From the NCBI GenBank assembly GCA_035471625.1, contig DATIPT010000069.1:15757-79756 (forward strand): a stretch of DNA of 64,000 nucleotides, in the 5' to 3' direction. Under the pieces are notes generated by a model that saw only the letters and a program-made list of their open reading frames with translations, was not told the DNA's origin and did not search any database. Below are positions 28,187-61,666 of this stretch, in pieces. How positions within the stretch are numbered: position 1 is the first letter of the stretch; each line of letters begins with the position of its first letter. The translations under genes were made by a program, and so were the position numbers. The stretch comes from Anaerolineales bacterium (GTDB lineage Bacteria > Chloroflexota > Anaerolineae > Anaerolineales > E44-bin32).

Positions 28187-28312
28187 GGGTAATCCTCGCG
28201 AAGCGGCCGGTCAACCCTGGCGCCCGGCTTACAGGTGGATTGCATTCGCAACCCCGCGTCCGGAAATCCGGCATACTGGTGGCGAAGGGCGAAGGCAAGA
28301 AACCGGCCCCAG

Positions 28313-28345
28313 AAAGCGAGGCTCGCTGCCGCTGCCTCGCTTTTT
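28313..28345 (+). promoter_or_regulatory. Terminator-like hairpin with T5 tail inside the 5' region of the GGDEF gene (candidate attenuator / small RNA 3' end)
   Basis: AAAGCGAGGC (28313-28322) pairs with GCCTCGCTTT (28334-28343), 11-nt loop, and a run of five T at 28341-28345. No upstream + strand gene is present to terminate. Confidence 0.4.
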
Positions 28346-28476
28346 GCGTGCCGCCGGGCCTCCAGGTGATTGCCTCCCTGAACGGCGGCCTCTATACTTG
28401 GGAGAATCCATGGATCCCTGCGATTCTGCCGCCAGAGCCGCCAATCCGGGGCAGCATCCGGCCCTCTGACCCATCG

Positions 28477-29880
28477 ATGGAGCCTGATTTTGTCCGACTG
28501 ATCGAGCACTCGCCCGACGCAGTCTTTCGTTGGAGCTTCGACCGCGGCCTGACCTATGCCAATCCTGCCTTCGCGCGACTGACGGGATACCCTCCGGAAG
28601 CGGGGCTGGAGTCCAAGGACTTCTTGCGGCGCTTGGTCGCAGCCGATGCGTGGGGCCCCATGGCGGAGGCGATCGAGCGCCTGCGGCGGGGAGAGGGGCC
28701 AGAGACGCTCCTGACTCGCGTGGCGCATCACGATGGCGGCGTGGTGTGGATGGACCTGGCCCTCGCGCCGGTCGAAGAAAGTGGCGGGAACGTCGTCGGG
28801 TTCGACGGGGTCGGGCGAGACATATCCCAGCAGCTCGAGGTGGCCGATCAGCTCCGGCGGCGCACGATGGAGCAGGCGACGCTCCTGCAGGTCCAGCGGG
28901 AGCTGCTGGCACAATTGGATCTCAACCCGACGCTGAACAAGATTGTCGAGCGCGCCTTGCGCCTGTTGGACGCCACAACGTGCACGATCTTCCTTGTGGA
29001 GGCCGACGGCGAAAGCTTGCGGCCGCTGGCGTCGGCAGGGGAATTCGCCGACGAACTGATGAGTCAGCGACCGAAGATCGGCCAGGGTCTGACCGGTTGG
29101 GTCGTCGAACACGGACTGCCCCAACGCGTCGATCACAGCAGCCAGGACTTCCGACCGCGGCACGTGGAGGGCACCCCCGAGGAAGATGAAAGCCTTCTGT
29201 GCGCGCCGCTGGAGATTGGGGGACAGGTGGCGGGCGCGCTCTTGCTGAGCGGCCAGGCCGGGCAATTTAGTGAGAACGACCTGGACTTTCTGGTCGCCCT
29301 GGCGCAGGTCGCTTCCCTGGCGATCGCCAACTCGCAGACTTTCGATCAGGTGCAGCGTCAGGCTACGATTGACAACCTCACCGGAGCGTTCAACCGCCAC
29401 TTCCTGGCTCAGAACCTTCGGAACGAACTGGCGCGGGCGGCGCGGCTCGGATATTCCGTGGGGTTGCTGATGGTCGACGTCGACAACCTCAAACGGGTTA
29501 ACGATCGCCACGGGCACCTCGTCGGTGACGAACTGCTCAAGGCCGTCGTCGACGGCCTGCGAGCGGTCAGCCGTGAGACCGACTGGGTGGCACGATACGG
29601 CGGCGATGAGTTCGCCGTGGTCTTGCCGGGATGCCCCCCTGACCAACTGCACGCCGTCGGGGAAAAGCTGCGCCGCAGCGTCGCCGGCCGGCGCCTGCGC
29701 TTGGCCGACGGAGAGAGCCTGGGCATCACCGTCAGCCTGGGGGGATCGGTCTTTCCCGAGGTCGCCGGCGATTTCGATACCCTGATGGCTCAGGCAGACG
29801 CCAATGAGCGGCGGGCAAAGCAGGCGGATGGCGACCGGGTTATCGTCGAGCCGCGTCCCAGGCCTCCCGGGGCCCGCTAG
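28477..29880 (+). CDS. PAS-GAF-GGDEF diguanylate cyclase
   Basis: PAS 'LIEHSPDAVFRWSFDRGLTYANPAFARLTGY'. GAF 'LRPLASAGEF...GLTGWVVEHGLPQRV'. GGDEF 'GAFNRHFL', 'MVDVDNLKRVNDRHGHLVGD', 'RYGGDEFAVVLPG'. Start ATG 28477 was chosen because the 79 codons upstream look non-protein-like. Confidence 0.85.
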   Translation: MEPDFVRLIEHSPDAVFRWSFDRGLTYANPAFARLTGYPPEAGLESKDFLRRLVAADAWGPMAEAIERLRRGEGPETLLTRVAHHDGGVVWMDLALAPVEESGGNVVGFDGVGRDISQQLEVADQLRRRTMEQATLLQVQRELLAQLDLNPTLNKIVERALRLLDATTCTIFLVEADGESLRPLASAGEFADELMSQRPKIGQGLTGWVVEHGLPQRVDHSSQDFRPRHVEGTPEEDESLLCAPLEIGGQVAGALLLSGQAGQFSENDLDFLVALAQVASLAIANSQTFDQVQRQATIDNLTGAFNRHFLAQNLRNELARAARLGYSVGLLMVDVDNLKRVNDRHGHLVGDELLKAVVDGLRAVSRETDWVARYGGDEFAVVLPGCPPDQLHAVGEKLRRSVAGRRLRLADGESLGITVSLGGSVFPEVAGDFDTLMAQADANERRAKQADGDRVIVEPRPRPPGAR

Positions 29881-34630: not shown

Positions 34631-37600
34631 GTGGATCGGGAGAAGCAAAGGACAACGCCTGGGATAGGCTCGGTGCGCACGGCCCCGCAGGCCGCTGCGC
34701 CCGACGTCGCGGCGGGGATCGAGATCGATCCCCGCGTCGAAGGCCCCTTGGGGGCGATCCTCGGCTCTCTGGTGACGCATGCAATGGCCCTTCTCAAGGG
34801 CGACGGAGGAGGCTTCTACCTAGCCGACCCCGGTGAGCGGACGCTGCAATGCGTCGTCGTGACCGGTATTCCCTCGAATATCCTGGGGAAGGTCCTGCGC
34901 TACGGCGAGGGCGCCGCTGGCAAGGTTGCCGAAGAAAAGGTTGCCCTCAACGTCGAGGACTACCGCACCTGGCAGGGACGGTCTCCGCAGTTCGAGGCCT
35001 CGGCGCCCTTCCGCGCCGTGGCCAGCGCACCGACCCTTGTGCGCGGCGCCGTCGTCGGAGTCCTGCATGTCTTGCGGACTTCCGGCGGGGATCCTTTTTC
35101 CGCCGCCGATGTCGAGGTGTTGTCGATCTTTGCCGACCAAGCCGGCATGGTTCTGGAGAACGCTCGTCTCCTGGAAGAGACCAATCGCCGGATCCATCAA
35201 CTCTCCATGTTGAACGAACTGACCCGAGTGGCCCTCGCTGCCGGCGACCTTGCTTCGATGTCGCAGGGCCTTGTCGAAGGGATCGAATCCTTGGTGGGAG
35301 CCGACGGGTGTCACCTGGTTGTGTGGAACGAGGACGAGAGCGTCGCCGTACCTTTGGCCGCCTCGGGCCTGTTGCGAGAGACCTATCGGGATATCCGACC
35401 CGTCGCGGGCCGACTGACCCTGACCGAGAGCTCGCTTCGGGAGGGGAGGCCTCTCGCCGTCGAGGATTGCCGGAACTCCCCTTTCCTCAGCCCCGAGATC
35501 GCTGCCGACTGTCCGTATGAGTCGATGCTGGGCGTGCCGTTGATCGTCGAGGACCGATGGATGGGGGCGGTCCTGCTCGTCTACCGGGAGCGACACTCGT
35601 TCGGCCCGGATGAGATCCACCTGTGTGAGCAGGCTGGCGGCCAGGTCGCACTGGCCTTGGCCAAGGTCCTGGCCTCGGAGGCCGATCGGGAACAGCGCGA
35701 GCAATTGGAGGGGTTGCGGCGTGCGGGGCTGCGCCTAACCGCCAGTCTGGAACGCCAAGCTGTCCTCGAAGCGCTTTTGGAAGAGGCCATCGATCTGGTC
35801 GGGGGGATCGATGCTCACATCTTCCTCTTCGACGGCCGCGCCCTGACGTTCGGGGCGGCGCTCTGGGACGGAACGTTCCGGTCCGCACCCTGGTCGGAAC
35901 CGCGTCCCGAGGGTCTGACATGGCAGGTGGCCCGCAGCGGAGGGCGAGTGGTTGTGCAAGATGCGGGTGATCACTCGTTGTACCGCCAAGCTCCCTGGCA
36001 AGGAAGCATCGTCGGTTTGCCCCTTCGCATTGGTGAGCATGTGCGCGGGGTGATGACAATGGCCTTCGGGAGTCCGGGCGCTGTGACCGACGGCCGGCTG
36101 CAGATCCTCGAACTCCTTGCGGATCAAGCTGTCGTCGCTATCGAGAATGCGCGGCTTTATGATGCCGCCGACGCCGAGCGGCGGCGGATTCGACTTCTCT
36201 ACGTGGTCAGTCGTGAGATCTCGACGAGCCTGGACCCGGCCGAGATTCTGCGGCGGGCGGTCAGCCTCGCGGTTGTCCACCTGGGAGGGAACCGCGGGGC
36301 GGGGTACGTGCTGGAGCCCGCCACAGGCCGGCTACGGCTGGTGGCCGCGGAGCCTGTATCTGAGGTCTCCCTGGAGGAGCAGGACCGGAAGTTGGGGCTC
36401 CGCCTGGGGCGCGGTTTGGCGGGTTGGGCAGCGGAGCGCCGGGAACCGGTCCTAGCATCGGATGTCCTTCATGATGAGCGGTGGGTCCCTGTGCCGGGGA
36501 TGGAATCCGAGGGCGGATCGGCCATGGCTGTGCCGATCGTCTCGGCGACCGATGTGCTGGGGAGCCTGGTCCTCCTGTCCAGCGAGCCCCTCGACGAAGG
36601 GCACCTCGAGCTGTTCCAGGCGATCGCGCGACAGGTCGGCCTGGCCCTGGCCAATGCCCAGCGCTACCAGCAGGTCACCCGTCGGTTGGCGGAGTGGACG
36701 GCGCTCCAGCAGGTTGCCAAGGTCGTCAACCGACGGCTGGAGCTTCTTCCCCTTCTCGATGAGATCGTTCGTCAGGTGAGCGATGTCTTGGGATATCCGG
36801 TCGTCGAGATCTCCCTGATTGAGGGGGACGAACTCATCCTGCAAGCGGCCAATGGGTCGGAGGTGGTCGGATCCAAGCGGCTGTCGCTGACACAAGGGAT
36901 TATTGGTCGGGCGGTCCGCACGAATCGTCCGACCCACGTGCCCGATGTCGAGGCCGATCCAGATTATGTGGTTGGAGTCCCTTCCACGCGTTCGGAGATC
37001 GCGGTGCCCCTGTACAAAGGGGACATCGTGGTGGGCGTGCTGAACGTGGAGTCACCGGTGACCGGAGGGCTGACTGAGGAAGACCTGGACCTGTTGACGC
37101 TCCTCGCCGATCAAGTGTCCGTCGCTCTGGAGAACGCCGCACTCTACGAGAGGCTGCGCCGGCACACCGCGGACCTTGAAGCGACGGTCTCCGAGCGGAC
37201 GGCTGAACTGCAGACCGCCTTGGCGGAGTCCCGGGCGGCGGACCAACTGAAGACTCGATTTGTGGCCGACGTCTCGCACGAGCTACGAACACCGCTGACC
37301 AACATTCGCCTCTACCTCGACCTGCTGGACAAGGGAAGGAGCGAGCGGTTCGCCGACTACCTAGAGACCCTCCACCGAGAGACGAATCGCCTGATTGACT
37401 TGATCGAGGATCTGTTGACGGTCTCCCGTTTGGACGCCGAGACGGCCGAGATGACTCCGGTCTGGATCGACCTGAACAGCATGGCCTTCAGCCTGGTGGA
37501 AGATCGGCGTCGTCTGGTCTCCAAGCTGGACCTGGGGATCGGGTTCGAGCCCCAGTCGGATCTGCCCCTCGTGCGCGCCGACGAGCGCATGATTTCACAA

Positions 37601-37957
37601 GTCCTGGCGAACCTGATGACCAACGCGGTGAACTACACAATGCCCGGGGGATCCATCACGGTCCGAACGGACACGATCGCGGATGGTCAGAACAAGTGGG
37701 CGCGCCTGTCCGTGATTGACACCGGGCTCGGGATCTCCGAGAGCGAGGCTCCGCGGCTCTTCGAGCGCTTCTTTCGGGGCTCGGCCAGTCGTGCGCGGGG
37801 TATCGCCGGAACCGGGTTGGGTCTGGCGATCTGCAAGGAAATCCTGGATCGACACGGGGGCCGGATCACGGCCGCCAGCACAGAGGGCATGGGCTCAACG
37901 TTCACCATCTGGCTTCCCGTCCAGCGGGCCAGCGAGATCGCGACAACCCCCGCCTAG
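34631..37957 (+). CDS. Multi-GAF (about five tandem GAF domains) sensor histidine kinase
   Basis: Repeated GAF endings ('VLENARLLEE', 'AIENARLYDA', 'ALANAQRYQQ', 'ALENAALYERL'). H-box 'SHELRTPLTNI', 'LMTNAVNYT', 'DTGLGI', 'GTGLGLAICKEI'. The GTG 34631 start is uncertain. Confidence 0.85.
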   Translation: MDREKQRTTPGIGSVRTAPQAAAPDVAAGIEIDPRVEGPLGAILGSLVTHAMALLKGDGGGFYLADPGERTLQCVVVTGIPSNILGKVLRYGEGAAGKVAEEKVALNVEDYRTWQGRSPQFEASAPFRAVASAPTLVRGAVVGVLHVLRTSGGDPFSAADVEVLSIFADQAGMVLENARLLEETNRRIHQLSMLNELTRVALAAGDLASMSQGLVEGIESLVGADGCHLVVWNEDESVAVPLAASGLLRETYRDIRPVAGRLTLTESSLREGRPLAVEDCRNSPFLSPEIAADCPYESMLGVPLIVEDRWMGAVLLVYRERHSFGPDEIHLCEQAGGQVALALAKVLASEADREQREQLEGLRRAGLRLTASLERQAVLEALLEEAIDLVGGIDAHIFLFDGRALTFGAALWDGTFRSAPWSEPRPEGLTWQVARSGGRVVVQDAGDHSLYRQAPWQGSIVGLPLRIGEHVRGVMTMAFGSPGAVTDGRLQILELLADQAVVAIENARLYDAADAERRRIRLLYVVSREISTSLDPAEILRRAVSLAVVHLGGNRGAGYVLEPATGRLRLVAAEPVSEVSLEEQDRKLGLRLGRGLAGWAAERREPVLASDVLHDERWVPVPGMESEGGSAMAVPIVSATDVLGSLVLLSSEPLDEGHLELFQAIARQVGLALANAQRYQQVTRRLAEWTALQQVAKVVNRRLELLPLLDEIVRQVSDVLGYPVVEISLIEGDELILQAANGSEVVGSKRLSLTQGIIGRAVRTNRPTHVPDVEADPDYVVGVPSTRSEIAVPLYKGDIVVGVLNVESPVTGGLTEEDLDLLTLLADQVSVALENAALYERLRRHTADLEATVSERTAELQTALAESRAADQLKTRFVADVSHELRTPLTNIRLYLDLLDKGRSERFADYLETLHRETNRLIDLIEDLLTVSRLDAETAEMTPVWIDLNSMAFSLVEDRRRLVSKLDLGIGFEPQSDLPLVRADERMISQVLANLMTNAVNYTMPGGSITVRTDTIADGQNKWARLSVIDTGLGISESEAPRLFERFFRGSASRARGIAGTGLGLAICKEILDRHGGRITAASTEGMGSTFTIWLPVQRASEIATTPA

Positions 37958-43083: not shown

Positions 43084-45450
43084 TCAGGTAGGCTGGGCCG
43101 GAGGGCTCTGGAAGACGAGGCCGGCGATGAGGTAGGCCAGGCCGCCGAGGATCAGACTGGCGGTCAACCCCAAGTCGAGCATCACCATTGACGATAAGAC
43201 CCCGGCAACCCCGGAGGCAGCGCCGTTGACAGCCCAGGCCAGGCCGACGGCGGCGCGGTCGCCGGCGGCATATCTTCGGATCCCGGCCGGGAACGGCGCA
43301 CCCATCAGGAGTCCCAGCGGGACTAGGAAGACCAGCGCCAACAGGGCTCGTCCGGCGATAGGCCATCCGAGGATCTGTGGAAGGAGTGCCCGCAACAGGA
43401 TTGCCAGGGCGACCGCCATCGCAGCCAACGCGAACAGGATCGGGCGGGTCGGCCAGCGATCCGAAAGGCGACTGCCGACGCCGGATGCCAGGAGGAGGGT
43501 GGTGACGACGAAGATGAACGCCGCGGTCGGGCGTTCGAGGGGCAGCGTCAATCGCTGGAGCATCGAGACCTCGACAAGAAGGAAGCCGCCCCCGATCGCG
43601 CCGAAGAAGATCCATCCGTCCCCTGGCAAACGGCCGCGCCCACGCCTGGAGCGTGCGGCGGCGGCGAGCAGGCCTCCCGCCAGCGCAATCACCAGCAGCA
43701 GGAGAGCCAGCAGAACAAGGTAGCCGCTGCCGCCAAAGGGCTGCCACGTCCGCCCCAGCGCGGCCAGGGCTTCGGAAGTCTGTTCCCACCGGAAGAAATG
43801 GAAGAAGAACGGCCGATCATCCGTCGCGGGCTCGACGCGGAAAGGATAGGACTCGATGAGTCCCTCAGGATCGGCCAAGAGCTGGCGGAAGAGATCCGGA
43901 TACGGATCGTTCGGGATCCGGATGAACCGGTTCGTCTCTTCCGACTGCAAACGGGGCCAGTAGATGGGATCGAAGCCGTTGCGCTCAAGAAAGACGCGCA
44001 CCGTCTGGAGTTCGGCCTGGGTCCATGGATCGAGGGAGGCGATCAATGTGGACGTGCGCAGAGTCCGGAAGGCGATGACCCGCTCGGCCGGCTCAAGGCC
44101 TTGCCGTCGCAGGGCCGTCACGGCCGTGGTCCAGGCGCGCAGCGACTCGGCCGGAGGCGTTGTGAGCCACCGGTCGACAAGGAGCAGACCTCCCGGTCGG
44201 AGTCGGCGAATTGCCGCACCAAAGGCTTCGAGGGTCAGGTCGTCGGTCTCGGTCAGGCTGAAAGCCCCCGACGCAACCGGTCGGAAAGGGTCTGAAAGAG
44301 CGAACCGGACGATCTCGTAGCTCTGGTCGGTCCGTTCCAGTGCGCTGCGGCTGTTGGAGGCAAGCCACCGGACTCGGGGGTGCTCGAGCACGGAGTGTGT
44401 GTAGTCGCGGTGGGACGCGAGGAGGGCGTCGGCCACAAGAGGCTCGTCGATCGGAAGGGTCACCGACTTCGCTCCACAGCCCACAGCGAGGGCGGCGTCG
44501 AACCCGGCTGCGGAGCGCACGACCAAGACCTCGGCACCGGGTCGCAGGGCGCAGCCGATCCCGATGGGCAGCGCATCCGCCAGATCTCGGGAGGTGGGGC
44601 CATCGGGATCGAGTGCCGTGGCCGGCCAGGGCCCATCGCCGTCGAGGAAGATGCCCGCTTGAGCGGGAAGGTCGCCGGTGTAGCCGAGGCTGAGCCCGGG
44701 GTAGCTGTGCACGCCAGCGCTCTCGAGGATCTCCAGCCGCGCCGACATGCTCTCGCGGAATACGGCAACTCTGGCTCCCGGGTAGGTTCGGGCCTGGGCG
44801 AGGGCTTTGTTCGGCGAGAGCTGCAGGTGAAGCCAGGGGGGAGGCTGAACTGCGAGCCCAATCAGGAGGAGCGATCCGAGTGCAGCCGTCCAGCGCATCG
44901 CCTTGGGCTCGGAGAGCCATGCAGCACTGGCAAGGCCGGTTGCGGCGGCGAACAAGATCGCCGACTCGAGACGGCCGAGGCTTGTGGCCAGGAGCGCCAG
45001 CAGGGGGCCGGCTGCGGACCCGATGAGGCTGGCGGCGTACGTCGGGCCGGGGGCATCGCCGGCGGCCGCCAGGGCGGCGCCGGTGAACCACCCGGCGAAG
45101 AAGAAGGGGAGCCCGGCGCTCCCAAAGTACAGGATGAGAATCAGCACCTGGCGCCGGTCCCAGGCAACGGCGTACGAGTCGAACGGGAAGGCGTTGAGGA
45201 GGCCGTACGCCAGGACGATCGAGATCGAGGTGGCGACGGCCAGGCGGGCGGGGGAGGCCGGGCGGCTGCGCAATGCCAGGGCCGTCCCGCCGGCCGCCGT
45301 TCCCAGGACGGCCAGGCTCACAACAAGGAAGGCGAAGTGATAAAACTGCTGTATCGCGTACAGCCGCAGCAGCGCGACCTCGAAGCACAGCGCTCCGGCC
45401 GACAGCAAGAACAAGGCGACGGCAGGACGGAAAGAGGAACCGTGTGTCAT
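43084..45450 (-). CDS. Fused polytopic membrane / spermidine-synthase-like (class I methyltransferase fold) protein
   Basis: N- and C-terminal multi-TM blocks flank a soluble region ('VLVVRSAAGFDAALAVGCGAKSVT', 'LRPGGLLLV'). Start ATG 45450. The 205-codon track extension overlaps mgsA on the opposite strand and is rejected. Confidence 0.7.
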   Translation of the reverse strand: MTHGSSFRPAVALFLLSAGALCFEVALLRLYAIQQFYHFAFLVVSLAVLGTAAGGTALALRSRPASPARLAVATSISIVLAYGLLNAFPFDSYAVAWDRRQVLILILYFGSAGLPFFFAGWFTGAALAAAGDAPGPTYAASLIGSAAGPLLALLATSLGRLESAILFAAATGLASAAWLSEPKAMRWTAALGSLLLIGLAVQPPPWLHLQLSPNKALAQARTYPGARVAVFRESMSARLEILESAGVHSYPGLSLGYTGDLPAQAGIFLDGDGPWPATALDPDGPTSRDLADALPIGIGCALRPGAEVLVVRSAAGFDAALAVGCGAKSVTLPIDEPLVADALLASHRDYTHSVLEHPRVRWLASNSRSALERTDQSYEIVRFALSDPFRPVASGAFSLTETDDLTLEAFGAAIRRLRPGGLLLVDRWLTTPPAESLRAWTTAVTALRRQGLEPAERVIAFRTLRTSTLIASLDPWTQAELQTVRVFLERNGFDPIYWPRLQSEETNRFIRIPNDPYPDLFRQLLADPEGLIESYPFRVEPATDDRPFFFHFFRWEQTSEALAALGRTWQPFGGSGYLVLLALLLLVIALAGGLLAAAARSRRGRGRLPGDGWIFFGAIGGGFLLVEVSMLQRLTLPLERPTAAFIFVVTTLLLASGVGSRLSDRWPTRPILFALAAMAVALAILLRALLPQILGWPIAGRALLALVFLVPLGLLMGAPFPAGIRRYAAGDRAAVGLAWAVNGAASGVAGVLSSMVMLDLGLTASLILGGLAYLIAGLVFQSPPAQPT

Positions 45451-45510
45451 AGCCGCCTGCGTTGATTGTACGCGCGATCGAGGAACGGACTTTGACCCAG
45501 GAGGACGAAC

Positions 45511-45963
45511 GTGCACACTTCTCTCGAGATGCCTGTCCGCAAACGCGTGGCCCTGGTCGCTCACGACAATCGCAAGAATGATCTGTTGGATTGGGCGGTC
45601 TACAACCGAGATTCTCTCGCCGGGCACGACTTGTTCGCCACGGGTCGGACGGGCAACATGCTGGCCGAGGCCCTGCACCTCCCGGTACAGCGCCTGATCC
45701 ATGGCCCCCTTGGCGGCGACCAACAGCTCGGGGCGCGCATCGCCGAGAACGAGATCGATTTTCTGGTGTTCTTCTGGGATCCGCTGCAGCCGATGCCGCA
45801 CGACCCGGACGTCAAGGCCTTGCTGCGGATCGCCGTGCTCTACAACGTGCCGACGGCGTGCAATCGGGCGACGGCCGACTTCCTGATCTCGTCGCCGCTG
45901 ATGCAGGCTAGCTACGAGCGGATCATCCCCGACTACCTGTCCCGGCTGACGGGCGAGGCCTGA
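45511..45963 (+). CDS. mgsA: Methylglyoxal synthase
   Basis: 'VALVAHDNRKNDLL', 'ATGRTGNML', 'GPLGGDQQLGA', 'FFWDPLQPMPHDPDVKALLR'. GTG 45511 after AGGAGG. Confidence 0.9.
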   Translation: MHTSLEMPVRKRVALVAHDNRKNDLLDWAVYNRDSLAGHDLFATGRTGNMLAEALHLPVQRLIHGPLGGDQQLGARIAENEIDFLVFFWDPLQPMPHDPDVKALLRIAVLYNVPTACNRATADFLISSPLMQASYERIIPDYLSRLTGEA

Positions 45964-46161
45964 GGATCGTCCAGGCTCCCTGCCCATCGCTCCGTGAGAC
46001 TTGGGAGGGGTACGTGTCGGGTGCGGGGGTCCGCGCCCCCCCCGTGCGACATCACAGTGGCTCAATGCACCAGTTAACGAGGCTCATACATTGGGCCTAC
46101 TCCGGTCTAATACGGGGAGCTCAGAATGCGGGCAATCTGAAACACGGTTGGAGGTATCAAA

Positions 46162-51963: not shown

Positions 51964-53883
51964 ATGGATCCGCCGCTCATCCTCATCGCTGACGACAACC
52001 GAGACATCCGAGAGTTCCTCGAGCAGGCTGTCCTGATCCCGGCTGGATACCGCGTGCGTGCCGTCGGCGACGGGCTCTCGGCGGTTGCCCTGACCCGCGA
52101 GCTGCTGCCGGATCTGGTCATCACCGATCTCCAGATGCCCGGGATGCAGGGGCTCGACGTGATTCGGCGGATTCGCCAGGATCGGAACGGGCCTCCGGTC
52201 ATCCTGATGACGAGCGAGGGATCGGAGCAAGTGGCCATCGAGGCGTTGCGGGCTGGCGCCGTCGACTACCTGGCCAAGCCCTTTGAAGCCGAGCAGTTGC
52301 TGGCGGCGGTCGGCAGGGCTCTGGCCGAGGGTCGGCGCTGGCGCGCCGTCCGTCAGGAGCAAGCTGATGCCGAAGTTTCAGCCGCCACTCTGGAGCGCAG
52401 GCTGCAAGAGCTGGAGGCGCTGTCGCTGATCGGGCGGACCGTCACGGCCGTGCTGGACCTCGACGAGGTCCTGACGACGGTCGTCGATGCCGCGGTGCGC
52501 CTGACCGGGGCCGAGGAGGGCAGCCTGCTGCTCCTCGACCCGGCGAGCGGCGAACTCTACATGCGAGCCTCCAAGAACTTCGACGAGGAGTTCGCTCGGA
52601 CCTTCCGGCTGCACGTCAAGGACTCGCTGGCGGGGCAGGTTCTCGCGACCGGCGAGCCGGTGATCCTCGACCAAGCATCGCCACAGAAGATCAAGACGGC
52701 GTATCTGGTTCACTCCCTCCTGTATGTGCCCCTGCAGGTTCGCGGAAGGACGATTGGCGTTCTGGGAGTCGACAACCGCAAGGCGGGCCGGAGCCTGACC
52801 GCACAGGACCGGACGATAATGCTGGCGATGGCCGACTACGCAGCAATCGCCATTGAGAATGCGCAGCTGTACCAGGCCAGCGAAGCGGAGCGCCGCAAGA
52901 TCGAGACGGTCCTGACCCAGACCGAGAGCGGGGTCCTGGTCCTCGATCCTGAGAACCGGATCGTCCTGCTCAATCGGGCCGCCCGCCAGATCTATGGGAT
53001 CGAGCGGAATGTCGACGGCCGATCGATCGCCGAGGTGGTCGACGATCCGCGCCTGCTGGCGTTCACGCGGGCCGGAAGTGAGATCACCCGCCGGGAGGAG
53101 ATCGAGGCGCCCGATGGGCGGGTCTTCATCGCCCAACGTTCGCTCATCCCGCCGCTTGGCCAGGCGATCGTGATGCACGACGTCACTCACCTCAAAGAAC
53201 TCGACCGCATCAAGTCGGAGTTCGTCACCACGGTTTCCCACGACTTGCGCTCCCCGCTTACGGCGATCCTCGGGTACGTCGAGTTGATCGAACGCGCCGG
53301 CGACGTAAACGACCAGCAGCGCGAATTCATCCGGAGGGTCCGACTCTCCGTGGAGCAAATGACTCACCTGGTGACAGACCTGCTCGATCTGGGAAGGATC
53401 GAGGCGGGGCTGGACGCTACCCGCGAGGCGACACCGGTCTCCGTCCTGGCCCGCTACGCGCTGGACGGGCTGCGCAATTCGGCCGAGGTCAAGCGACTGG
53501 TGGTCATCGCAGATCTCCCCGATGAGCTGCCCCTGGTGCGGGGAGATCCCTACCGCCTGCGGCAGATGATCGGGAATCTCCTCGAGAATGCCATCAAGTA
53601 CACCCCCGAAGGCGGAAAAGTGACGATCCGAGGGAGCGCCGAAGGAGAGCAAGTCATCCTGCGGGTCGTCGATACTGGCCCGGGGATCGCTGCCGTCGAG
53701 CAGCCCTACATCTTCGACAAGTTCTTCCGTGGCAGCAATGTGCCCGAGGACAGCGGCGGGACGGGGTTGGGGCTATCGATCGTCAAGTCGATCGTGGATA
53801 GTCACCAGGGGCGAATCTGGGTCGACTCGGAGATCGGCAAGGGGACGACCTTCACCGTGGTCCTGCCGCGCGCCGAAGCCTGA
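51964..53883 (+). CDS. Hybrid REC-GAF-PAS histidine kinase
   Basis: 'LILIADDNRDIREFL', 'DLVITDLQMPGMQG', 'GAVDYLAKP'. GAF 'AIAIENAQLYQ'. H-box 'SHDLRSPLTAILGY', 'LLENAIKYT', 'DTGPGI', 'GTGLGLSIVKSI'. Confidence 0.9.
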   Translation: MDPPLILIADDNRDIREFLEQAVLIPAGYRVRAVGDGLSAVALTRELLPDLVITDLQMPGMQGLDVIRRIRQDRNGPPVILMTSEGSEQVAIEALRAGAVDYLAKPFEAEQLLAAVGRALAEGRRWRAVRQEQADAEVSAATLERRLQELEALSLIGRTVTAVLDLDEVLTTVVDAAVRLTGAEEGSLLLLDPASGELYMRASKNFDEEFARTFRLHVKDSLAGQVLATGEPVILDQASPQKIKTAYLVHSLLYVPLQVRGRTIGVLGVDNRKAGRSLTAQDRTIMLAMADYAAIAIENAQLYQASEAERRKIETVLTQTESGVLVLDPENRIVLLNRAARQIYGIERNVDGRSIAEVVDDPRLLAFTRAGSEITRREEIEAPDGRVFIAQRSLIPPLGQAIVMHDVTHLKELDRIKSEFVTTVSHDLRSPLTAILGYVELIERAGDVNDQQREFIRRVRLSVEQMTHLVTDLLDLGRIEAGLDATREATPVSVLARYALDGLRNSAEVKRLVVIADLPDELPLVRGDPYRLRQMIGNLLENAIKYTPEGGKVTIRGSAEGEQVILRVVDTGPGIAAVEQPYIFDKFFRGSNVPEDSGGTGLGLSIVKSIVDSHQGRIWVDSEIGKGTTFTVVLPRAEA

Positions 53884-55447: not shown

Positions 55448-56239
55448 CTACCGGGCCAGCAACCCCCACCGTTCCCGGGCTCGGCGCTCGAGGGCCCCAA
55501 ACACCAGTTGGTCGCTGGCCAATCCAAGGGTGATGATGATGAGCATCACCGCCACCACCTGACCCATATCATTCAACTCGCGGCCCATCATCAAGAGATT
55601 GCCAAGCCCCGGAAGCGCGTACAGAAGCTCCCCGGCCATCAGCGAGCGCCATGCGAACGCCCAGCCGAGCTTCATCCCGGTCAGGATTGACGGCAAGGCG
55701 GCCGGCAGGATGACATATGGGTACAGCTGCCAGCCGCGCGCACCGAGGTTGCGCGCGGCCCGGATGAACACCGGAGGAGAGTTGCGGACTCCATCCTCGG
55801 TCGCCTGGCTGATGGCCAGCACCGACCCCATCACCACAACGAACAAGATCGCTTGCGGGTTCAAGCCGAACCACAGGAGGGCGAGGGGGAGCCAACAGAT
55901 GCTCGGAAGAGCCTGCAGTCCCATCACGACCAGCCCCAGGGTTTCCTTGAGCCACCGAACCTGGGCGAGTAGCAACCCAAGTGTCAGTCCGATCACGGTG
56001 GCGATCAGGTACCCCTGCAGCAGGCGGCCAAGAGAGCCGAGGATCCCCTTGGCGAACATCCCCATGGAGAAGCCGCTCAGGAGGGAACTGGCAACGGCCG
56101 AGGGCGACGGGAAGATGTAAGCGGGCCACAGGCCCATCCATGCCAGGACCTGCCAGGCGACCAGGATCCCAAGGAGAAAGAGGCCCCGGCGGATCCACAG
56201 GTTGGCCCGGGGCGAGAGGCGCCGTGCGACATCAGTCAT
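55448..56239 (-). CDS. ABC transporter permease (nitrate/sulfonate/taurine type)
   Basis: Six TM segments and an EAA-like loop 'ISQATEDGVRNSPPVFIRAARNLGA'. Confidence 0.85.
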   Translation of the reverse strand: MTDVARRLSPRANLWIRRGLFLLGILVAWQVLAWMGLWPAYIFPSPSAVASSLLSGFSMGMFAKGILGSLGRLLQGYLIATVIGLTLGLLLAQVRWLKETLGLVVMGLQALPSICWLPLALLWFGLNPQAILFVVVMGSVLAISQATEDGVRNSPPVFIRAARNLGARGWQLYPYVILPAALPSILTGMKLGWAFAWRSLMAGELLYALPGLGNLLMMGRELNDMGQVVAVMLIIITLGLASDQLVFGALERRARERWGLLAR

Positions 56240-56996
56240 GGCGAATGGCCTCCGTCAGTTGCAGGTCGGAGGCGATCCGACCGGCCAGTTCAGCGGTGGC
56301 GAGATCGTCGATGTGGCGGGGGCGAGGCAGGTGGATCGGATGGTCGGCCAGGATCCGTCCGGGGCGCGGGCTGAAGACGACGACCCGGTCGCCCAAGACG
56401 ACCGCCTCACGGACATTGTGGGTCACGAACACGACGGTCTTGCCCATCCGCATCCACAGTTCCTGAAGCTCATCATGCAGGAGCTGCCGGGTGATCGCAT
56501 CCAATGCGCCGAAGGGTTCATCCAGAAGGAGGACGGCCGGATCGACGGCCAGGGCGCGCGCAAGGGCGACCCGCTGCTTCATCCCTCCCGAGAGCTCATG
56601 GACCCAGGCATCGTCAAAGGCCTCCAGATGGACCATTTTCAACAGTCGATCCGAAGTCTTGTGACGCTCCGCTGCCGGAACCCGCTTCATTCTCAGACCG
56701 AACTCAACGTTGTCGCGGACCGTCAGCCAGGGGAACAGGGCGGCCTCCTGGAACAGCAGCACCCGGCTAGGGTCTGGGCCGGTGACAGTCTCGCCGTTGA
56801 CATGAACCTGGCCGGAAGACGGCGTCTCGAGCCCGGCCAGGATGTACAGGAGTGTCGTCTTTCCGCACCCTGAAGGCCCGATGGCGCAGACGAATTCGCC
56901 GGCGGCGACGGTGAGGTTGATCTCCGAGAGCGCCAGCAGGTCTCCCGAGCGCGTCGGATAGAACTTGCTCACGGTGACGACTTCGAGGGCTTGCAT
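56232..56996 (-). CDS. ABC transporter ATP-binding protein (SsuB/TauB-like)
   Basis: Walker A 'GPSGCGKTT', signature 'LSGGMKQRVALARAL', Walker B 'LLLDEPFGALD'. Overlaps the permease start by 8 nt. Confidence 0.9.
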   Translation of the reverse strand: MQALEVVTVSKFYPTRSGDLLALSEINLTVAAGEFVCAIGPSGCGKTTLLYILAGLETPSSGQVHVNGETVTGPDPSRVLLFQEAALFPWLTVRDNVEFGLRMKRVPAAERHKTSDRLLKMVHLEAFDDAWVHELSGGMKQRVALARALAVDPAVLLLDEPFGALDAITRQLLHDELQELWMRMGKTVVFVTHNVREAVVLGDRVVVFSPRPGRILADHPIHLPRPRHIDDLATAELAGRIASDLQLTEAIRHD

Positions 56997-57014
56997 CGGA
57001 ATGCACCCCCTGCG

Positions 57015-58055
57015 CTAGCGGACCTGAGGGTACCCCTCTTCCTCCAGCAGCTCGTTCAGGATGGTGAGATCGTAGATCCCGTCCAAGTCTGGTTGCTCTC
57101 GCAAGAAGCCGGCGGCGAAGGCGGCTTCGGCCGAAGCGACCAGGGATGTGGAAATCGGATCCCAGGTCGGCCGCAGGCGCGACCATGCCATCGAGAGAAC
57201 GGCCGGGTCGAGTTCCTTGCCGGTCATCCGTCCGATCTCTTGATTGAGGAGGGTCTGGGCCTCGTCCGGGTGGGCCAAGGACCATTCGGTGACGACGAGG
57301 TGCGCCGACAGCCAGTTCCGGACAATCTCGGGGTGGTCGCGGAGCAGGCTGGGGCGGACGATCACATGGGCGGTCACGAAGTCGCCGTTGGGCCACAAGT
57401 CGCGCTCGTCGAGGAAGAGTTCCCCGCCGCCCTCGACGATCAAGCGGGCAGCCCACGGCTCCGGGACCCAGGCGCCATCGATCTGGCCGAGACGGAAGAG
57501 GTTCAGGATCTGTGAGTTCTCGGTCGGAAAGATCTCGACATCCCCACCGCGCTCGACCGTATCGAAACCGTGGGCGATCAAATAGCTGCGTAGAGCCACG
57601 TCCTGGGTATTCCCCAGCTGGGGGGTGGCCAGGCGACGCCCGCTCAGGTCTGGGGGAGTCGTGATGCCGGCCTCCGGCCGAACGACCAACGCTGCGCCGC
57701 CGCTCGTGGCGCCGGCCACGATTCGAAGCGCCTCGCCCTGGGATTGCACATATCCGTTGATGGCGGGGTTCGGGCCAATGTAGGACATGTCGATCTCACC
57801 GGCGAACATGGCCTCGATGACCGACGGGCCGGCGTTGAACTGGATCGGCTCGATCTGCACCTGCGGTCCAAGGGCCGTCTGGAAGTCCCCGCGCGCCAGT
57901 CCGATCAGGGCCTGGCTGTGGGTGATGTTCGGGAAGTAGCCGACTCGCAGAACCATGGCGCCATTCGGATCGGAACGTCCGCTGGTGGAGCAGGCGGCCA
58001 ACAGGAGGCCAAGTGCGAGGGAGTAGAGGCGAGGAAGGAGGGGCCGGCGGGGCAT
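57015..58055 (-). CDS. ABC transporter substrate-binding lipoprotein (NMT1/SsuA-like)
   Basis: Lipobox 'LLAAC'. 'LRVGYFPNITHSQALIG' and 'IDMSYIGPNPAI' are typical of this family. Confidence 0.8.
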   Translation of the reverse strand: MPRRPLLPRLYSLALGLLLAACSTSGRSDPNGAMVLRVGYFPNITHSQALIGLARGDFQTALGPQVQIEPIQFNAGPSVIEAMFAGEIDMSYIGPNPAINGYVQSQGEALRIVAGATSGGAALVVRPEAGITTPPDLSGRRLATPQLGNTQDVALRSYLIAHGFDTVERGGDVEIFPTENSQILNLFRLGQIDGAWVPEPWAARLIVEGGGELFLDERDLWPNGDFVTAHVIVRPSLLRDHPEIVRNWLSAHLVVTEWSLAHPDEAQTLLNQEIGRMTGKELDPAVLSMAWSRLRPTWDPISTSLVASAEAAFAAGFLREQPDLDGIYDLTILNELLEEEGYPQVR

Positions 58056-58113: not shown

Positions 58114-59085
58114 TCACGTCTCCAAGGGTGCGGTCGTGGGGTGGTCCAACTCCTTGCGGACAGCGCGGTACAGGTTCTCCGCCTTGAGTTCAGCCAGAGT
58201 GTAGCATGGGCCGCCCAGCTTCTCCGCCAGAGCCGTCGCCAGTCCCTGATCGAAAGCGGCGTGTTCCATGTTGATGACGACCGATCGGACGTCGGACTGC
58301 CTGATCAGGTCGGCGATCCGGTGGGCTTCCTCCTGCGGCGGTAGCTCGCTCATCGAAACGTTCCCGGCGCCGTCGGTCAGCAGGATCAGCAAGGGGAGGA
58401 CGTCGGGGTGAGCGATTCGCTCCTGCTGGAAGAGTTCGTAGGCGAGGCGCAAGCCTGCCGAGAGAGGCGTCTTGCCGCCGACCGGGATGTCGGCCAGGGC
58501 CTTCTGGGCGAGTTGAACGGAATTGGTCGGCGGCAGCACCGTCAGGGCCCGATCCTTCTGGAAGACGATCAGGCCGACCCGATCTCGGCGTTGGTAGGCA
58601 TCGGTCAGGAGCGAAACGATCGCGCCCTTGGTCGCCGACATGCGCTCGGCCACGGCCATCGACCATGAGGCGTCGACGACGAAGAGGATCAGGTTGGCCG
58701 CACGGCGGACGCGGATCTTGCGCTGGAGATCGCTTGGCTCGATCGCCAGGGCCACCTCGTTGCGTTTGGCCAGGCGCCGACGCTGGTAAGGGGCGGCGGC
58801 GCGAAACGTGGCATCGAAGGCGATGTCGCTGGTCCGGCCCTGGGCCGGGCGGGCGGCGATGTATCGGCCGCGCTTGCGATCGGTACGGGTCTGGGTTCGG
58901 CGACCGCCCTGGCGGCGAGTCAGCCGGTCGATGGGGGATTCGAGGCGCCGGGGGGCGAAGGACTCGCCGACGCGCACCTTGTCGCCGCCCTCCCACCACC
59001 GGGCCTGAACCGAGGTCGACGTCGGCTGTCGACCGGGCTCCGGTGTGCCGGCCGGCGGACGTTCTTCCTCGCCTTCACGGATCAC
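58114..59085 (-). CDS. VWA-domain protein (BchD/ChlD C-terminal-like), Pro/acidic N-terminal linker
   Basis: MIDAS 'FVVDASWSM', 'DRVGLIVFQKDRALTVLPPT', 'GGKTPLSAGL', 'LILLTDGAGN'. The GTG start at 59085 overlaps the upstream stop (GTGA). Confidence 0.8.
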   Translation of the reverse strand: MIREGEEERPPAGTPEPGRQPTSTSVQARWWEGGDKVRVGESFAPRRLESPIDRLTRRQGGRRTQTRTDRKRGRYIAARPAQGRTSDIAFDATFRAAAPYQRRRLAKRNEVALAIEPSDLQRKIRVRRAANLILFVVDASWSMAVAERMSATKGAIVSLLTDAYQRRDRVGLIVFQKDRALTVLPPTNSVQLAQKALADIPVGGKTPLSAGLRLAYELFQQERIAHPDVLPLLILLTDGAGNVSMSELPPQEEAHRIADLIRQSDVRSVVINMEHAAFDQGLATALAEKLGGPCYTLAELKAENLYRAVRKELDHPTTAPLET

Positions 59086-60194
59086 GCCGTGTGGCGGGCT
59101 TTTTTTTTATCCTCGGCGGTGGCTTCGCCGGATCCATCGTCTCCGGCGGAGGGCGTCGGTTCGGGCTGTGCCTGAATCTGTTGGATGCGCGATTGCAGGT
59201 CGTCGAGCGCGACGTCGGATTGCTGGAAGGGCCCGCGGCGCAGCCGATGAGGCAGCGCCAGCTCCGCCGCCAGGGCGATATCCCGATCGGTGAGGCGCGT
59301 GCGCCCTTCGTATGCGGCGTGGGCCCGGGCGGCTTTCAAGATGACCAGATCGGCCCGGTGGCCGTCGACACGCAGGGAGGCGGTCAGGGTGGCAATGGCG
59401 AAAAGGTCGCGGGGCGAGTACTCGACGTGGTCGACCAAGCGCCGGGCGGCGTCGATCTCGCGGGAGAGTGTCTGCTCACGGTCGAGCCACTGGCGGCGGA
59501 AGCCGTCGGGGTCCGCCTCGAAGGCCAGGATTCGCTCCATGATGGCGATCCGGTCGTTGGGGTCCTGCAGCCCGCGGATTTCCACCGAGAGGGCGAACCG
59601 GTCCAGCAGCTGGGGCCGCAGGTCGCCTTCTTCGGGGTTCATCGTCCCGACGAGGATGTAGCGGGCCGGGTGGCTGAATGAGATCCCTTCCCGCTCGACG
59701 ATGTTCATTCCCAAGGCGGCCGAGTCGAGCAGGACGTCGACGACGTGGTCGTCGAGCAGATTGACTTCGTCGATGTACAGCAGACCTCGGTTGGCGGCGG
59801 CGAGAACGCCGGCTTCGAAGTGCCGCTCGCCTTCCTTAATCGCCCGCTCGATGTCCAGGGTCCCGACCACCCGGTCTTCGGTCGCCGAGACGGGTAGGTC
59901 GACGAAAGACGTGCGTCGCAGGGCGGTCGGTAGTGCCTTCCCGGCTGCGGATCGCTCCCGGCATTCGGTGCACCAGGTTGTGGGTTGATCCGGATCGCAG
60001 CCGAAACGGCAGTCGGCAACTACCCGCACTTCGGGAAGGAGTTCCGCCAGGGCGCGAGCGGCGGTGGATTTGGCCGTTCCGCGCTCGCCGCGAATCAAGA
60101 CGCCACCGATCCGAGGGTTCACGGCGTTGAGGATCAGGGCGCGGCGCATCCGCTCCTGGCCGACAATAGCGGTGAAGGGAAAGACCACGGTCAT
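59082..60194 (-). CDS. ChlI/BchI-like AAA+ ATPase (Mg-chelatase subunit I family)
   Basis: 'FPFTAIVGQERMRRALILNAV', Walker A 'GERGTAKST', Walker B 'LLYIDEVNLLDDHVVDVLLD', 'GTMNPEEGDLRPQLLDRF'. Start ATG 60194 (MTVVFPF). Confidence 0.85.
   Translation of the reverse strand: MTVVFPFTAIVGQERMRRALILNAVNPRIGGVLIRGERGTAKSTAARALAELLPEVRVVADCRFGCDPDQPTTWCTECRERSAAGKALPTALRRTSFVDLPVSATEDRVVGTLDIERAIKEGERHFEAGVLAAANRGLLYIDEVNLLDDHVVDVLLDSAALGMNIVEREGISFSHPARYILVGTMNPEEGDLRPQLLDRFALSVEIRGLQDPNDRIAIMERILAFEADPDGFRRQWLDREQTLSREIDAARRLVDHVEYSPRDLFAIATLTASLRVDGHRADLVILKAARAHAAYEGRTRLTDRDIALAAELALPHRLRRGPFQQSDVALDDLQSRIQQIQAQPEPTPSAGDDGSGEATAEDKKKARHTA
59100..59108 (-). repeat. A9 homopolymer (T9 on + strand) encoding KKK at the 3' end of the ChlI-like gene
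   Basis: Counted directly: t at 59100 plus eight t at 59101-59108. AAG is otherwise the visibly preferred Lys codon in neighbouring genes. Confidence 0.95.
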
Positions 60195-60249: not shown

Positions 60250-60278
60250 TTTACAAGTCTCCGGTTCACTCGTATAAT
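60250..60278 (+). promoter_or_regulatory. Sigma70-type promoter of rpsA: TTTACA-N17-TATAAT
   Basis: TTTACA at 60250-60255, an exactly 17-nt spacer, TATAAT at 60273-60278. AAGGA RBS about 10 nt before ATG 60311. Confidence 0.55.
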
Positions 60279-60310: not shown

Positions 60311-61666
60311 ATGGAATCAGCCAAAGAGCCCCTCGAAACACCGGCGGAGGACAAGCCGGAAGCCGAGGGTGCCGAAGCCCATCCGATGGATGCCTTCCTC
60401 GAAGAGGAAGCGTTCGGGATGGAAACGCCCCGACGGGGCGAAATGCGAACCGGCACCATCGCCCGAATCAGCGGGAACGATATTCTGGTGGACATCGGCG
60501 CCAAGTCGGAAGGCGTGATCCCGGCGTCGGAGATCGAACAGATGTCGGAAGAGGAGCGCGCCGAGCTCGTCGTCGGCCGCGAGCTGCCCGTCTACGTCGT
60601 GCGGACCGGCGACCGGGAAGTCGGGACCGTGCTCTCGGCGACCCGGGCGATGGAAGAGAGTGATTGGACCAAGGCCGAGGAGATGATGCAGGACCAGGAG
60701 GTCTTCGAAGGCCAGGTCAGCGGGTACAACAAGGGCGGCCTGATCGTCAAGGTCGGCAACCTGCGCGGCTTCATCCCGGCTTCTCAGGTCAGCCTGTCTC
60801 GCCGCCGGCGAGCCGATGGCGAGACGCCGGACAAGCGCTGGGGCAAGATGGTCGGCGAACCCATCATCGCCCGGGTGATCGAGGTCGACCGACGCCGCAA
60901 CCGCCTGATCCTCTCCGAAAGGGCCGCCGCGCGGGAAGCCCGCAAGGCTCTCAAGGAACGCCTGATCGGCGATCTGCAGCCCGGCGAAGTGCGCACGGGC
61001 CGGGTGATCTCGCTGGCCGATTTCGGCGCCTTCGTCGATATCGGTGGCGCCGACGGCCTGGTGCACCTGTCTGAGATCTCCTGGAAGCGCCTTGGCCACC
61101 CCAGCGAAGCTCTCGAGGTCGGCCAGGAGGTCCAGGTCAAGGTGCTCTCGGTCGACACCGAGCGCCGCCGGATCAGCCTGTCGATGCGGGAACTCGAGCC
61201 GGATCCGTGGGAGACGATCGTCGCCAATCTGAGCGAGGGTCAACTGATCGAAGGCCGGATCACGAAGATCACGAAGTTCGGCGCCTTCGCCAGCCTGACC
61301 GTCGCCGACGGCTACGAAGTCGAAGGCCTCATTCACATCTCGGAATTGGCGGACCGCCGGATCGAGTCTCCCGACGAGGTTGTGCAAGAAGGGCAGACGG
61401 TCACCCTGCGGGTGATCAAGATCGATCGGGCGCGCAAGCGCATTGGGCTGAGCCTGAAGCGCGTCTCTTCGTCGGAGTACGCTGAGATGGACTGGCAGGC
61501 GGCGGTCGGGGGGCCGGCTGCGTCGACGCCGACGTCGCCCGAAGTCGAGGATTTCGACGCCGAGTTGGATGAGGAGCCCGCCCCGGCGGAGGCCGACGAC
61601 GAGGAGCTCGACGACGACCTGGATGAGGATGACGACGACTTCGAGGACGACGACGACAGGGACTGA
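60311..61666 (+). CDS. rpsA: 30S ribosomal protein S1 with acidic C-terminal tail
   Basis: Four S1 repeats ('[24 protein letters not shown]', '[23 protein letters not shown]', '[26 protein letters not shown]', '[15 protein letters not shown]'). Strong upstream promoter and RBS. Confidence 0.9.

Follow-up and report, generated by a model that had tools for sequence, protein, structure and literature searches.

A poly-A run between a ChlI-like ATPase and a VWA reading frame in an Anaerolineales bacterium: a very probable case of fs-chlD-type recoding

In 2020 Antonov, writing in Molecular Biology and Evolution (MBE), reportedly used the name fs-chlD for one gene that serves for both a small and a medium subunit. 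The same name was used by Kuznetsov et al. (2022, PMC9227772), who likewise suggested a single gene as the source of the small and medium subunits and found fs-chlD in Anaerolineae (Anaerolinea, Levilinea, Longilinea, Ornatilinea and Brevefilum), some of them without a large subunit or a B12 or chlorophyll pathway; the role of an I/D pair that has no large subunit was already raised as a question in that paper. A cluster of Mg-chelatase genes with -1 frameshifting had been described in Pseudomonas, Burkholderia, Delftia, the Chloroflexi genus Herpetosiphon and Methanococcales (Antonov et al. [quoted passage not shown] The Mg-chelatase frameshift is also listed in the review of Atkins et al. 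(2016, PMC5009743). Recoding of dnaX comprises a -1 shift at A_AAA_AAG in E. coli, transcriptional slippage at A9 in Thermus thermophilus and a reversed arrangement with two open reading frames (ORFs) in Chlorobi (PMC5009743, PMC3711429). Here we describe a pair of overlapping ORFs, a ChlI-like AAA+ ATPase followed by a VWA-domain frame with an A9 run between them, in an Anaerolineales bacterium (assembly GCA_035471625.1, contig DATIPT010000069.1, positions 15,757 to 79,756). This whole stretch of 64 kb (66.4% GC) is called the window below, and the locus is read on its minus strand.

The two ORFs very probably constitute one recoded chlD-type gene (fs-chlD) that makes an I-like and a D-like product. 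The initial annotation of this DNA had already proposed that a shift or slip at the A9 run fuses the ATPase to the VWA part and leaves a D-like protein beside a free ATPase, and the proposal is now supported by conservation across relatives, by the match of the fusion to positions 1-640 of a chelatase family model and by the published assays on homologous sites, from which we infer shifting at the run of the window. The locus is a further member of the published fs-chlD recoding family, and the phenomenon as such is already known.

In our model a single message would serve for the two subunits of an I/D-type AAA+ complex, the I-like motor and the D-like adaptor. Standard decoding of a template-length mRNA would give a ChlI-like ATPase of ~40 kDa that ends five codons past the A9 run, and in a fraction of expression events a change to the -1 frame inside the run would lead to a ChlD/BchD-like protein of ~76 kDa. 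The long protein would consist of the AAA+ module, an acidic and Pro-rich linker and the VWA domain with its metal ion-dependent adhesion site (MIDAS), its N-terminal 365 residues being the same as those of the small protein. The shift could be reached by two routes, either by RNA polymerase adding one A on the T9 template, so that the mRNA carries A10, or by the ribosome slipping -1 on A_AAA_AAA, and both routes would yield an identical fusion protein.

The junction and its conservation

On the minus strand the junction reads ...GAG GAT AAA AAA AAA GCC CGC CAC ACG GCG TGA. The initial annotation had placed the A9 run at 59108-59100, 15 nucleotides (nt) before the ATPase stop (TGA 59084-59082), with a GTG at 59085 overlapping that stop as GTGA and opening a VWA ORF in the -1 frame, which is closed upstream by TAA at 59109-59107; all of these coordinates were verified, and the TAA was confirmed as the last -1-frame stop. 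Since this is the final stop of that frame, a productive -1 shift is confined to 59106-59085, a frameshift box that is bounded by the TAA on one side and by the 0-frame TGA on the other and that holds seven of the nine A residues (Table 1). Counted from the GTG, the VWA ORF spans 59085-58114 with a frame offset of 2 (equal to -1) relative to the ATPase. Addition of one A to the run gives a fusion protein of 693 amino acids (aa), with the conceptual shifted product ...EDKKK-SPPHGVIREGEEE... and a junction that reads ...EDKKK-SPPHGVIR...; the +1-frame TGA would end the products of mRNAs that lack one A or carry two additional A's (...KKKPATRRDP, then stop). As for the beginning of the gene, the ATG at 60194 (MTVVFPFTAIVGQ...), used by homologues and giving 370 aa, is likely to be the true start of the ATPase rather than the upstream GTG at 60269, which would give 395 aa.

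Table 1. Features of the ATPase-VWA junction (window coordinates).
Feature	Position	Strand	Remarks
ChlI-like AAA+ ATPase (small subunit), 0-frame ORF	59082..60194	-	370 aa; ends ...EDKKKARHTA, then stop
A9 slippery run, three 0-frame AAA Lys codons	59100..59108	-	candidate slippage or -1 frameshift site, A_AAA_AAA
Frameshift box, sole interval for a productive -1 shift	59085..59106	-	22 nt, between the stops of both frames
-1-frame ORF: acidic/Pro linker, AAPxQ motif region, VWA with MIDAS DASWS	58114..59106	-	C-terminal two-fifths of a ChlD/BchD-like medium subunit
GTG overlapping the 0-frame stop as GTGA	59083..59085	-	possible site of re-initiation of a stand-alone VWA protein, unconserved
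+1-frame stop TGA	59075..59077	-	22 nt past the run

The A9 run is the sole A or T homopolymer of at least 6 nt in the 64-kb window, where 0.014 A9/T9 runs would be expected. Its three AAA codons had been noted as unusual in the initial annotation, and the codon counts bear this out: in 45 ORFs with a high G+C content at third codon positions (GC3), Lys is encoded 271 times by AAG vs 55 times by AAA, and consecutive AAA-AAA pairs are found solely inside the run. A single long A run, composed of a rare Lys codon, therefore exceeds chance expectation.

Profile searches indicate that both ORFs are parts of one protein family. The ATPase ORF carries the Pfam domains AAA_lid_2, Mg_chelatase and AAA_5 and the VWA ORF the domains VWA_2 and VWA, and both match NCBIfam TIGR02442 ('putative cobaltochelatase', 641 positions), the ATPase at 1-353 and the VWA part at 380-640. 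The one-A fusion aligns to positions 1-640 of this model in a single stretch with 772.7 bits. The Mg-chelatase models are matched less well: the ATPase ORF reaches 418.8 bits (E = 1.5e-125) against TIGR02030 BchI-ChlI, under the equivalog cut-off of 466.95, and TIGR02031 BchD-ChlD matches both halves, with 441.4 bits for the fusion, under the equivalog cut-off of 499.55. Searches of the PDB paired the N part with ChlI (8osf and 6l8d) and BchI (1g8p) and the C part with the BchD VWA domain (2x31_A). In the family alignment the MIDAS residues DASWS and LLTDGAGN are invariant, and E, D and P abound in the linker. Walker A reads GxxGTAKS across the family, with Ala replacing the canonical Gly before Lys (window 60083-60106, minus strand; L001-L080), and most members have a four-Cys insert CxxxC...CxxC in the AAA+ module (window 59960-60010, minus strand: CRFGCDPDQPTTWCTEC).

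When one genome for each GTDB species was scanned, with separate tblastn searches for the N and C parts, 80 loci were obtained, 39 of which form a set with at least 60% identity from Anaerolineae/Chloroflexota. The VWA part was found in the -1 layout in 32 of these 39 loci, in frame in 4 and in the +1 frame in 1, and 2 loci were broken or truncated. An A7-A10 run sits in the overlap of every -1-layout locus (32/32). With the window included, the run lengths in 33 loci are A9 (26), A10 (2), A8 (2) and A7 (3), that is, A9 or A10 in 28 of 33. The 0-frame stop follows 1-55 nt past the run, and the -1 frame remains open for ~950-1000 nt past it (752 nt in L061, where the contig ends). The comparison of orthologous loci that had been proposed together with the initial annotation thereby turned out in favour of recoding, since the run, the -1 relation and the open -1 frame recur in 32 species-level genomes. 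In five loci (L035, L039, L046, L064 and L078) the productive box is just 10-13 nt long and is almost wholly run, which pins the shift site to the run itself.

The proteins retain traces of the run as well. K363 is nearly invariant and K364 invariant amid an otherwise hypervariable linker, and the 120 best-matching database proteins for the 370-aa ATPase, at 76-100% identity, are without exception short, at 334-425 aa, with C-termini 1-16 residues, mostly 2-10, past KKK or xKK, bar one 334-aa fragment. Variant tails such as PKK, QKK and RKK are the output of an A run in another codon phase, and in relatives the run is kept across all three codon phases. As the run is kept while the encoded residues vary, selection acts on the nucleotides and not on the lysines.

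Two loci of the set have odd layouts. The VWA part of L048 lies in the +1 frame with A9, which, if real, would need one A deleted or two added, and L058 has several frame breaks; since both come from Nanopore-based MFD metagenome-assembled genomes (MAGs), homopolymer errors are likely there.

Alternatives to a single recoded gene were weighed against the same set of loci. Translational coupling, named in the initial annotation as the fallback, would make the locus two ordinary genes, with the VWA protein translated by termination and re-initiation at the GTGA (GTG 59085 over TGA 59084-59082) and with A9 merely encoding three lysines; gene callers do give two genes in the same species (L085), and a separate I-type ATPase and D subunit is the norm in classical Mg-chelatases (PMC9227772), yet the GTG is confined to the window and to the 99.9% identical L085. 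It is absent in the 87-89% identical relatives L086 and L087, whose VWA ORFs were called 105-275 nt downstream, inside conserved sequence. Past the run and ahead of the first conserved motif, the VWA frame contains an ATG, GTG or TTG in 8 of 31 -1 loci, and a Shine-Dalgarno-like sequence occurs in 0 of 31, the GTG of the window likewise being without one. The conservation of the run as nucleotides in all three phases, the rarity of AAA as a Lys codon in the window and the occurrence of close relatives as single in-frame proteins (645-736 aa) also argue against two ordinary genes. Because the GTGA overlap is unconserved, it fails to explain the conserved junction; coupling was rejected as the conserved mechanism for lack of conserved GTG and Shine-Dalgarno-like signals, and we regard two ordinary genes as improbable.

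An error in a homopolymer is a very remote prospect for the window, even though such length errors are common in long-read assemblies, as the layouts of L048 and L058 illustrate. It would mean that the true run is A10 in a normal in-frame chlD-like gene, and the nearest in-frame homologues (77-79% identical, L081-L084) do carry A10 at the exact site; removal of one A from this type restores a 0-frame tail homologous to that of the window (GAC GCC CGC AGG GCG TAG in L082, GCC CGC CAC ACG GCG TGA in the window). The independent assembly L085 (SRR20819515), which is 99.91% identical over 5824 nt without gaps, nevertheless also has A9, the relatives at 87% and 89% identity (L086/L087) hold A9 in the same phase, and the -1 layout recurs in 32 species genomes, 25 of them with A9, and in 120 short-ORF protein clusters from many samples. 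Sequencing error was rejected on the A9 of L085 and of the 87-89% identical relatives. A slip from A10 to A9 in the DNA itself, by which the D-like fusion would be switched off in an inactivated or phase-variable gene, is scarcely more credible: poly-A is slippery for DNA polymerase too (PMC3711429), and out-of-frame A9 and in-frame A9/A10 alleles both occur among relatives, but the state of the run is stable within lineages (A10 in three P0003 samples, A9 in the window and L085) and the out-of-frame state is the majority across species. Moreover, the VWA frame is 59-76% identical at the protein level among the 32 -1-layout loci and free of secondary stops over ~950 nt, which is incompatible with long-term silencing, and a pseudogene was rejected on this intact frame in 32 species.

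A single recoded gene is therefore retained as the reading of the locus, with some points that weigh against it. The fusion score of 772.7 bits falls slightly below the curated cut-off of TIGR02442 (779.45), and in the window species some stand-alone VWA protein may also come from re-initiation at the GTG. Furthermore, the hairpin at 59096-59070 (-11.7 kcal/mol), which begins 3 nt past the run, is not conserved in L086 or L087 and has its equal at 39% of control positions, and is therefore unlikely to be a frameshift stimulator.

For annotation, this means that the ATP-binding-protein 'gene' and the VWA 'gene' should be entered as a single chlD-type gene that is recoded and has two products; such loci are still divided into two genes by pipelines (L085, L086).

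Polymerase slippage and ribosomal frameshifting

Sequence comparison leads us to favour, by a narrow preference, RNA-polymerase slippage over the ribosome as the main contributor in the A9 class to which the window belongs. Searches for a stimulatory element around its junction were negative. Folding of 80 and 141 nt around the junction gave z = -1.5 and -1.3, 50-nt windows and a hairpin scan against gene-wide controls revealed nothing significant or conserved in the clade of the window, and an Rfam scan of 58800-59400 at E <=1 gave no match, dnaX and IS frameshift elements included.

Across the family, the best hairpin 3-10 nt past the run was scored against control positions. The A9/A10 loci have a median best hairpin of -3.1 kcal/mol (control percentile 0.68), which is no excess, vs a median of -10.7 kcal/mol (control percentile 0.12) in the seven A7/A8 loci, a contrast with a Mann-Whitney p of ~0.001, uncorrected for phylogeny. 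Most A7/A8 loci show perfect G+C-rich stems of 6-8 bp that begin 6-9 nt past the run, e.g., CGCCGG-N6-CCGGCG and GCUGAUCG-N7-CGAUCAGC; hairpins of the short-run kind are found in L043, L051, L052, L054, L073 and L001, the last with a longer stem, and L004 is the exception. A hairpin 6-8 nt past a slippery run is the classical geometry of -1 frameshifting.

Four features of the long-run loci lean towards polymerase slippage. They have no excess of hairpins, and their +1 frame, which is irrelevant to a ribosomal -1 shift, closes early, with a stop within 25 nt past the run in 28 of 28 A9/A10 loci vs 30% of control positions (in five A7/A8 -1-layout loci the distances are 43, 82, 34, 73 and 1 nt). 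The preferred run is 9 A's long, whereas the ribosome needs 7, and the published efficiency climbs with run length. Finally, the in-frame relatives keep the run with both other frames stopped, as in Thermus dnaX.

These in-frame relatives carry the run at the same linker position, as A10 in L081-L084 and as A9 in L088-L094, and have stops 4-52 nt past the run in both alternative frames. L001, L003, L004 and L009, in frame too, also keep the run (A7-A10 overall), with an early -1-frame stop only in part of them. Close in-frame relatives are single proteins, as said, with ORFs of 680-688 aa in the loci that were fetched. One A more or less in the run separates the lineages, which are evidently viable either way. 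Judged by its arrangement, the in-frame layout with a run would be the reciprocal, Thermus-dnaX-like form, in which slippage would yield the short product.

Several observations count against polymerase slippage. The -1 direction dominates with 32 loci vs one +1 locus, which Antonov et al. (PMC3711429) took as a hallmark of ribosomal frameshifting, although insertion-biased polymerase slippage would produce the same -1 bias. All three A7 runs (two of them from close relatives) are exactly in phase (ccA AAA AAA G), and the contrasts between short and long runs rest on 5-7 partly related short-run loci, uncorrected for phylogeny. For A9 the phase of the run is uninformative on mechanism, because an in-phase heptamer exists in every phase. 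GAGG or GCGG stands directly before the run in many loci and tracks clades and codon phase.

The dichotomy between long runs without hairpin and short runs with hairpin suggests, at the level of sequence, two mechanistic classes in one gene family. A wider scenario is put forward tentatively, as a possibility short of our favoured expectations: in Anaerolineae the poly-A run could serve as a frame-agnostic switch between two products, driven for the most part by polymerase slippage, lineages may flip freely between in-frame (A9/A10) and -1 (A9) layouts, a minority may have cut the run to A7/A8, gained a hairpin 6-8 nt downstream and switched to a classical ribosomal -1 shift, and the I/D complex may be a non-chelatase one. 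If this switch is true, slippage would make the short product from the in-frame layout and the long product from the -1 layout. The non-productive frames are closed within ~25 nt in the -1-layout loci and within ~50 nt in the in-frame loci. Only the run-length/hairpin dichotomy and the interchange of in-frame and -1 layouts are possibly new. With its 32 -1-layout loci, several in-frame loci that keep the run and the short-run hairpin loci, the Anaerolineae set makes a compact natural experiment for separating polymerase slippage from ribosomal frameshifting.

Gene neighbourhood

The absence of a CobN/BchH-type subunit from the window, stated in the initial annotation, holds for every ORF of at least 519 aa: among the ten largest ORFs, all of at least 519 aa, a Pfam search revealed no CobN/ChlH, and the gene tables of eight related loci list none within their 10-kb flanks. 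In several inspected relatives (L082-L084, L086, L088-L092) the chlD-like gene is divergent from an S1-domain gene, which is followed by ClpC, RadA and DnaA, and the window begins the same block, with S1 at 60311-61666 (plus strand) and a ClpC-like frame from ~61.88 kb (about 61880) to the window end (plus strand). These S1-ClpC-RadA-DnaA neighbours are housekeeping and not tetrapyrrole genes. Because no H/N subunit is nearby and the neighbourhood is of this kind, the I/D AAA+-VWA complex may have a non-chelatase role.

Directly downstream on the same strand, 55448-58055 (minus strand) encodes an NMT1-type substrate-binding protein, an ATP-binding cassette (ABC) ATPase and a permease. Among the inspected loci this arrangement is common only to L085 of the same species, so it is probably no functional partner. 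The second-largest ORF of the window, 993 aa at 43087-46065 (minus strand) with a GC3 of 0.77, gave no Pfam match at E <=1e-5. The window also holds large GAF signalling proteins on the plus strand (34631-37954, 51964-53880 and 28240-29877), namely a histidine kinase with five GAF domains (1108 aa), a second one of receiver-GAF-PAS type and a PAS-GAF-GGDEF protein; L081, L086 and L091 also have a receiver-GAF histidine kinase close to the chlD-like gene.

Comparison with known systems

The classical pairs BchI/BchD (ChlI/ChlD) and CobS/CobT share with the locus an I-type AAA+ ATPase and a D subunit composed of an AAA+ module, a Pro-rich acidic linker and a VWA-MIDAS domain (DASWS, TDG). Here, unlike in the classical chelatases, I and D would come from one recoded gene, and the N-terminus of D would therefore be the same as I and not a diverged inactive AAA+ module. 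Other, putative differences are the GxxGTAKS P-loop and the CxxxC...CxxC insert. The scores below the equivalog cut-offs of TIGR02030 and TIGR02031 set the locus apart too, as does the H/N large subunit, which was seen neither in the window nor within 10 kb on either side in the inspected relatives. The locus adds evidence that I and D of class I chelatase-type AAA+ machines can come in a set ratio from one message.

With dnaX the locus has in common an AAA+ gene, a long and a short product that share their N-terminus and a poly-A slippery site. The resemblance to Thermus dnaX lies in A9 with nearby stops in both non-zero frames, as in the in-frame relatives described here, and features of the Thermus-dnaX type were found in the window as well, where A9 reaches the homopolymer length of at least 8-9 that spans the RNA:DNA hybrid and the 0-frame and +1 stops follow at 15 and 22 nt. 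In the window layout, as in the Chlorobi dnaX, the long product depends on the shift. The two systems differ in protein family and cellular role, and neither the upstream Shine-Dalgarno-type stimulator nor the conserved downstream hairpin of dnaX was found here, so that this is an analogy of mechanism, not a homology of signal.

The closest likeness is to fs-chlD. In the window and its family, the C-terminal part of chlD comes after a ChlI-like ORF and is read in the -1 frame, and the overlap contains a slippery site rich in A (A_AAA_AAR or poly-A of 7-11), in the window an in-phase A_AAA_AAA. A downstream stimulatory structure, which is usual but not obligatory according to the authors of the published family, was not encountered in the window or in the A9/A10 class, and the window genome is presumably outside the published catalogue. 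Whereas the literature treats the shift as ribosomal, the comparative data presented here lean towards the polymerase for long runs.

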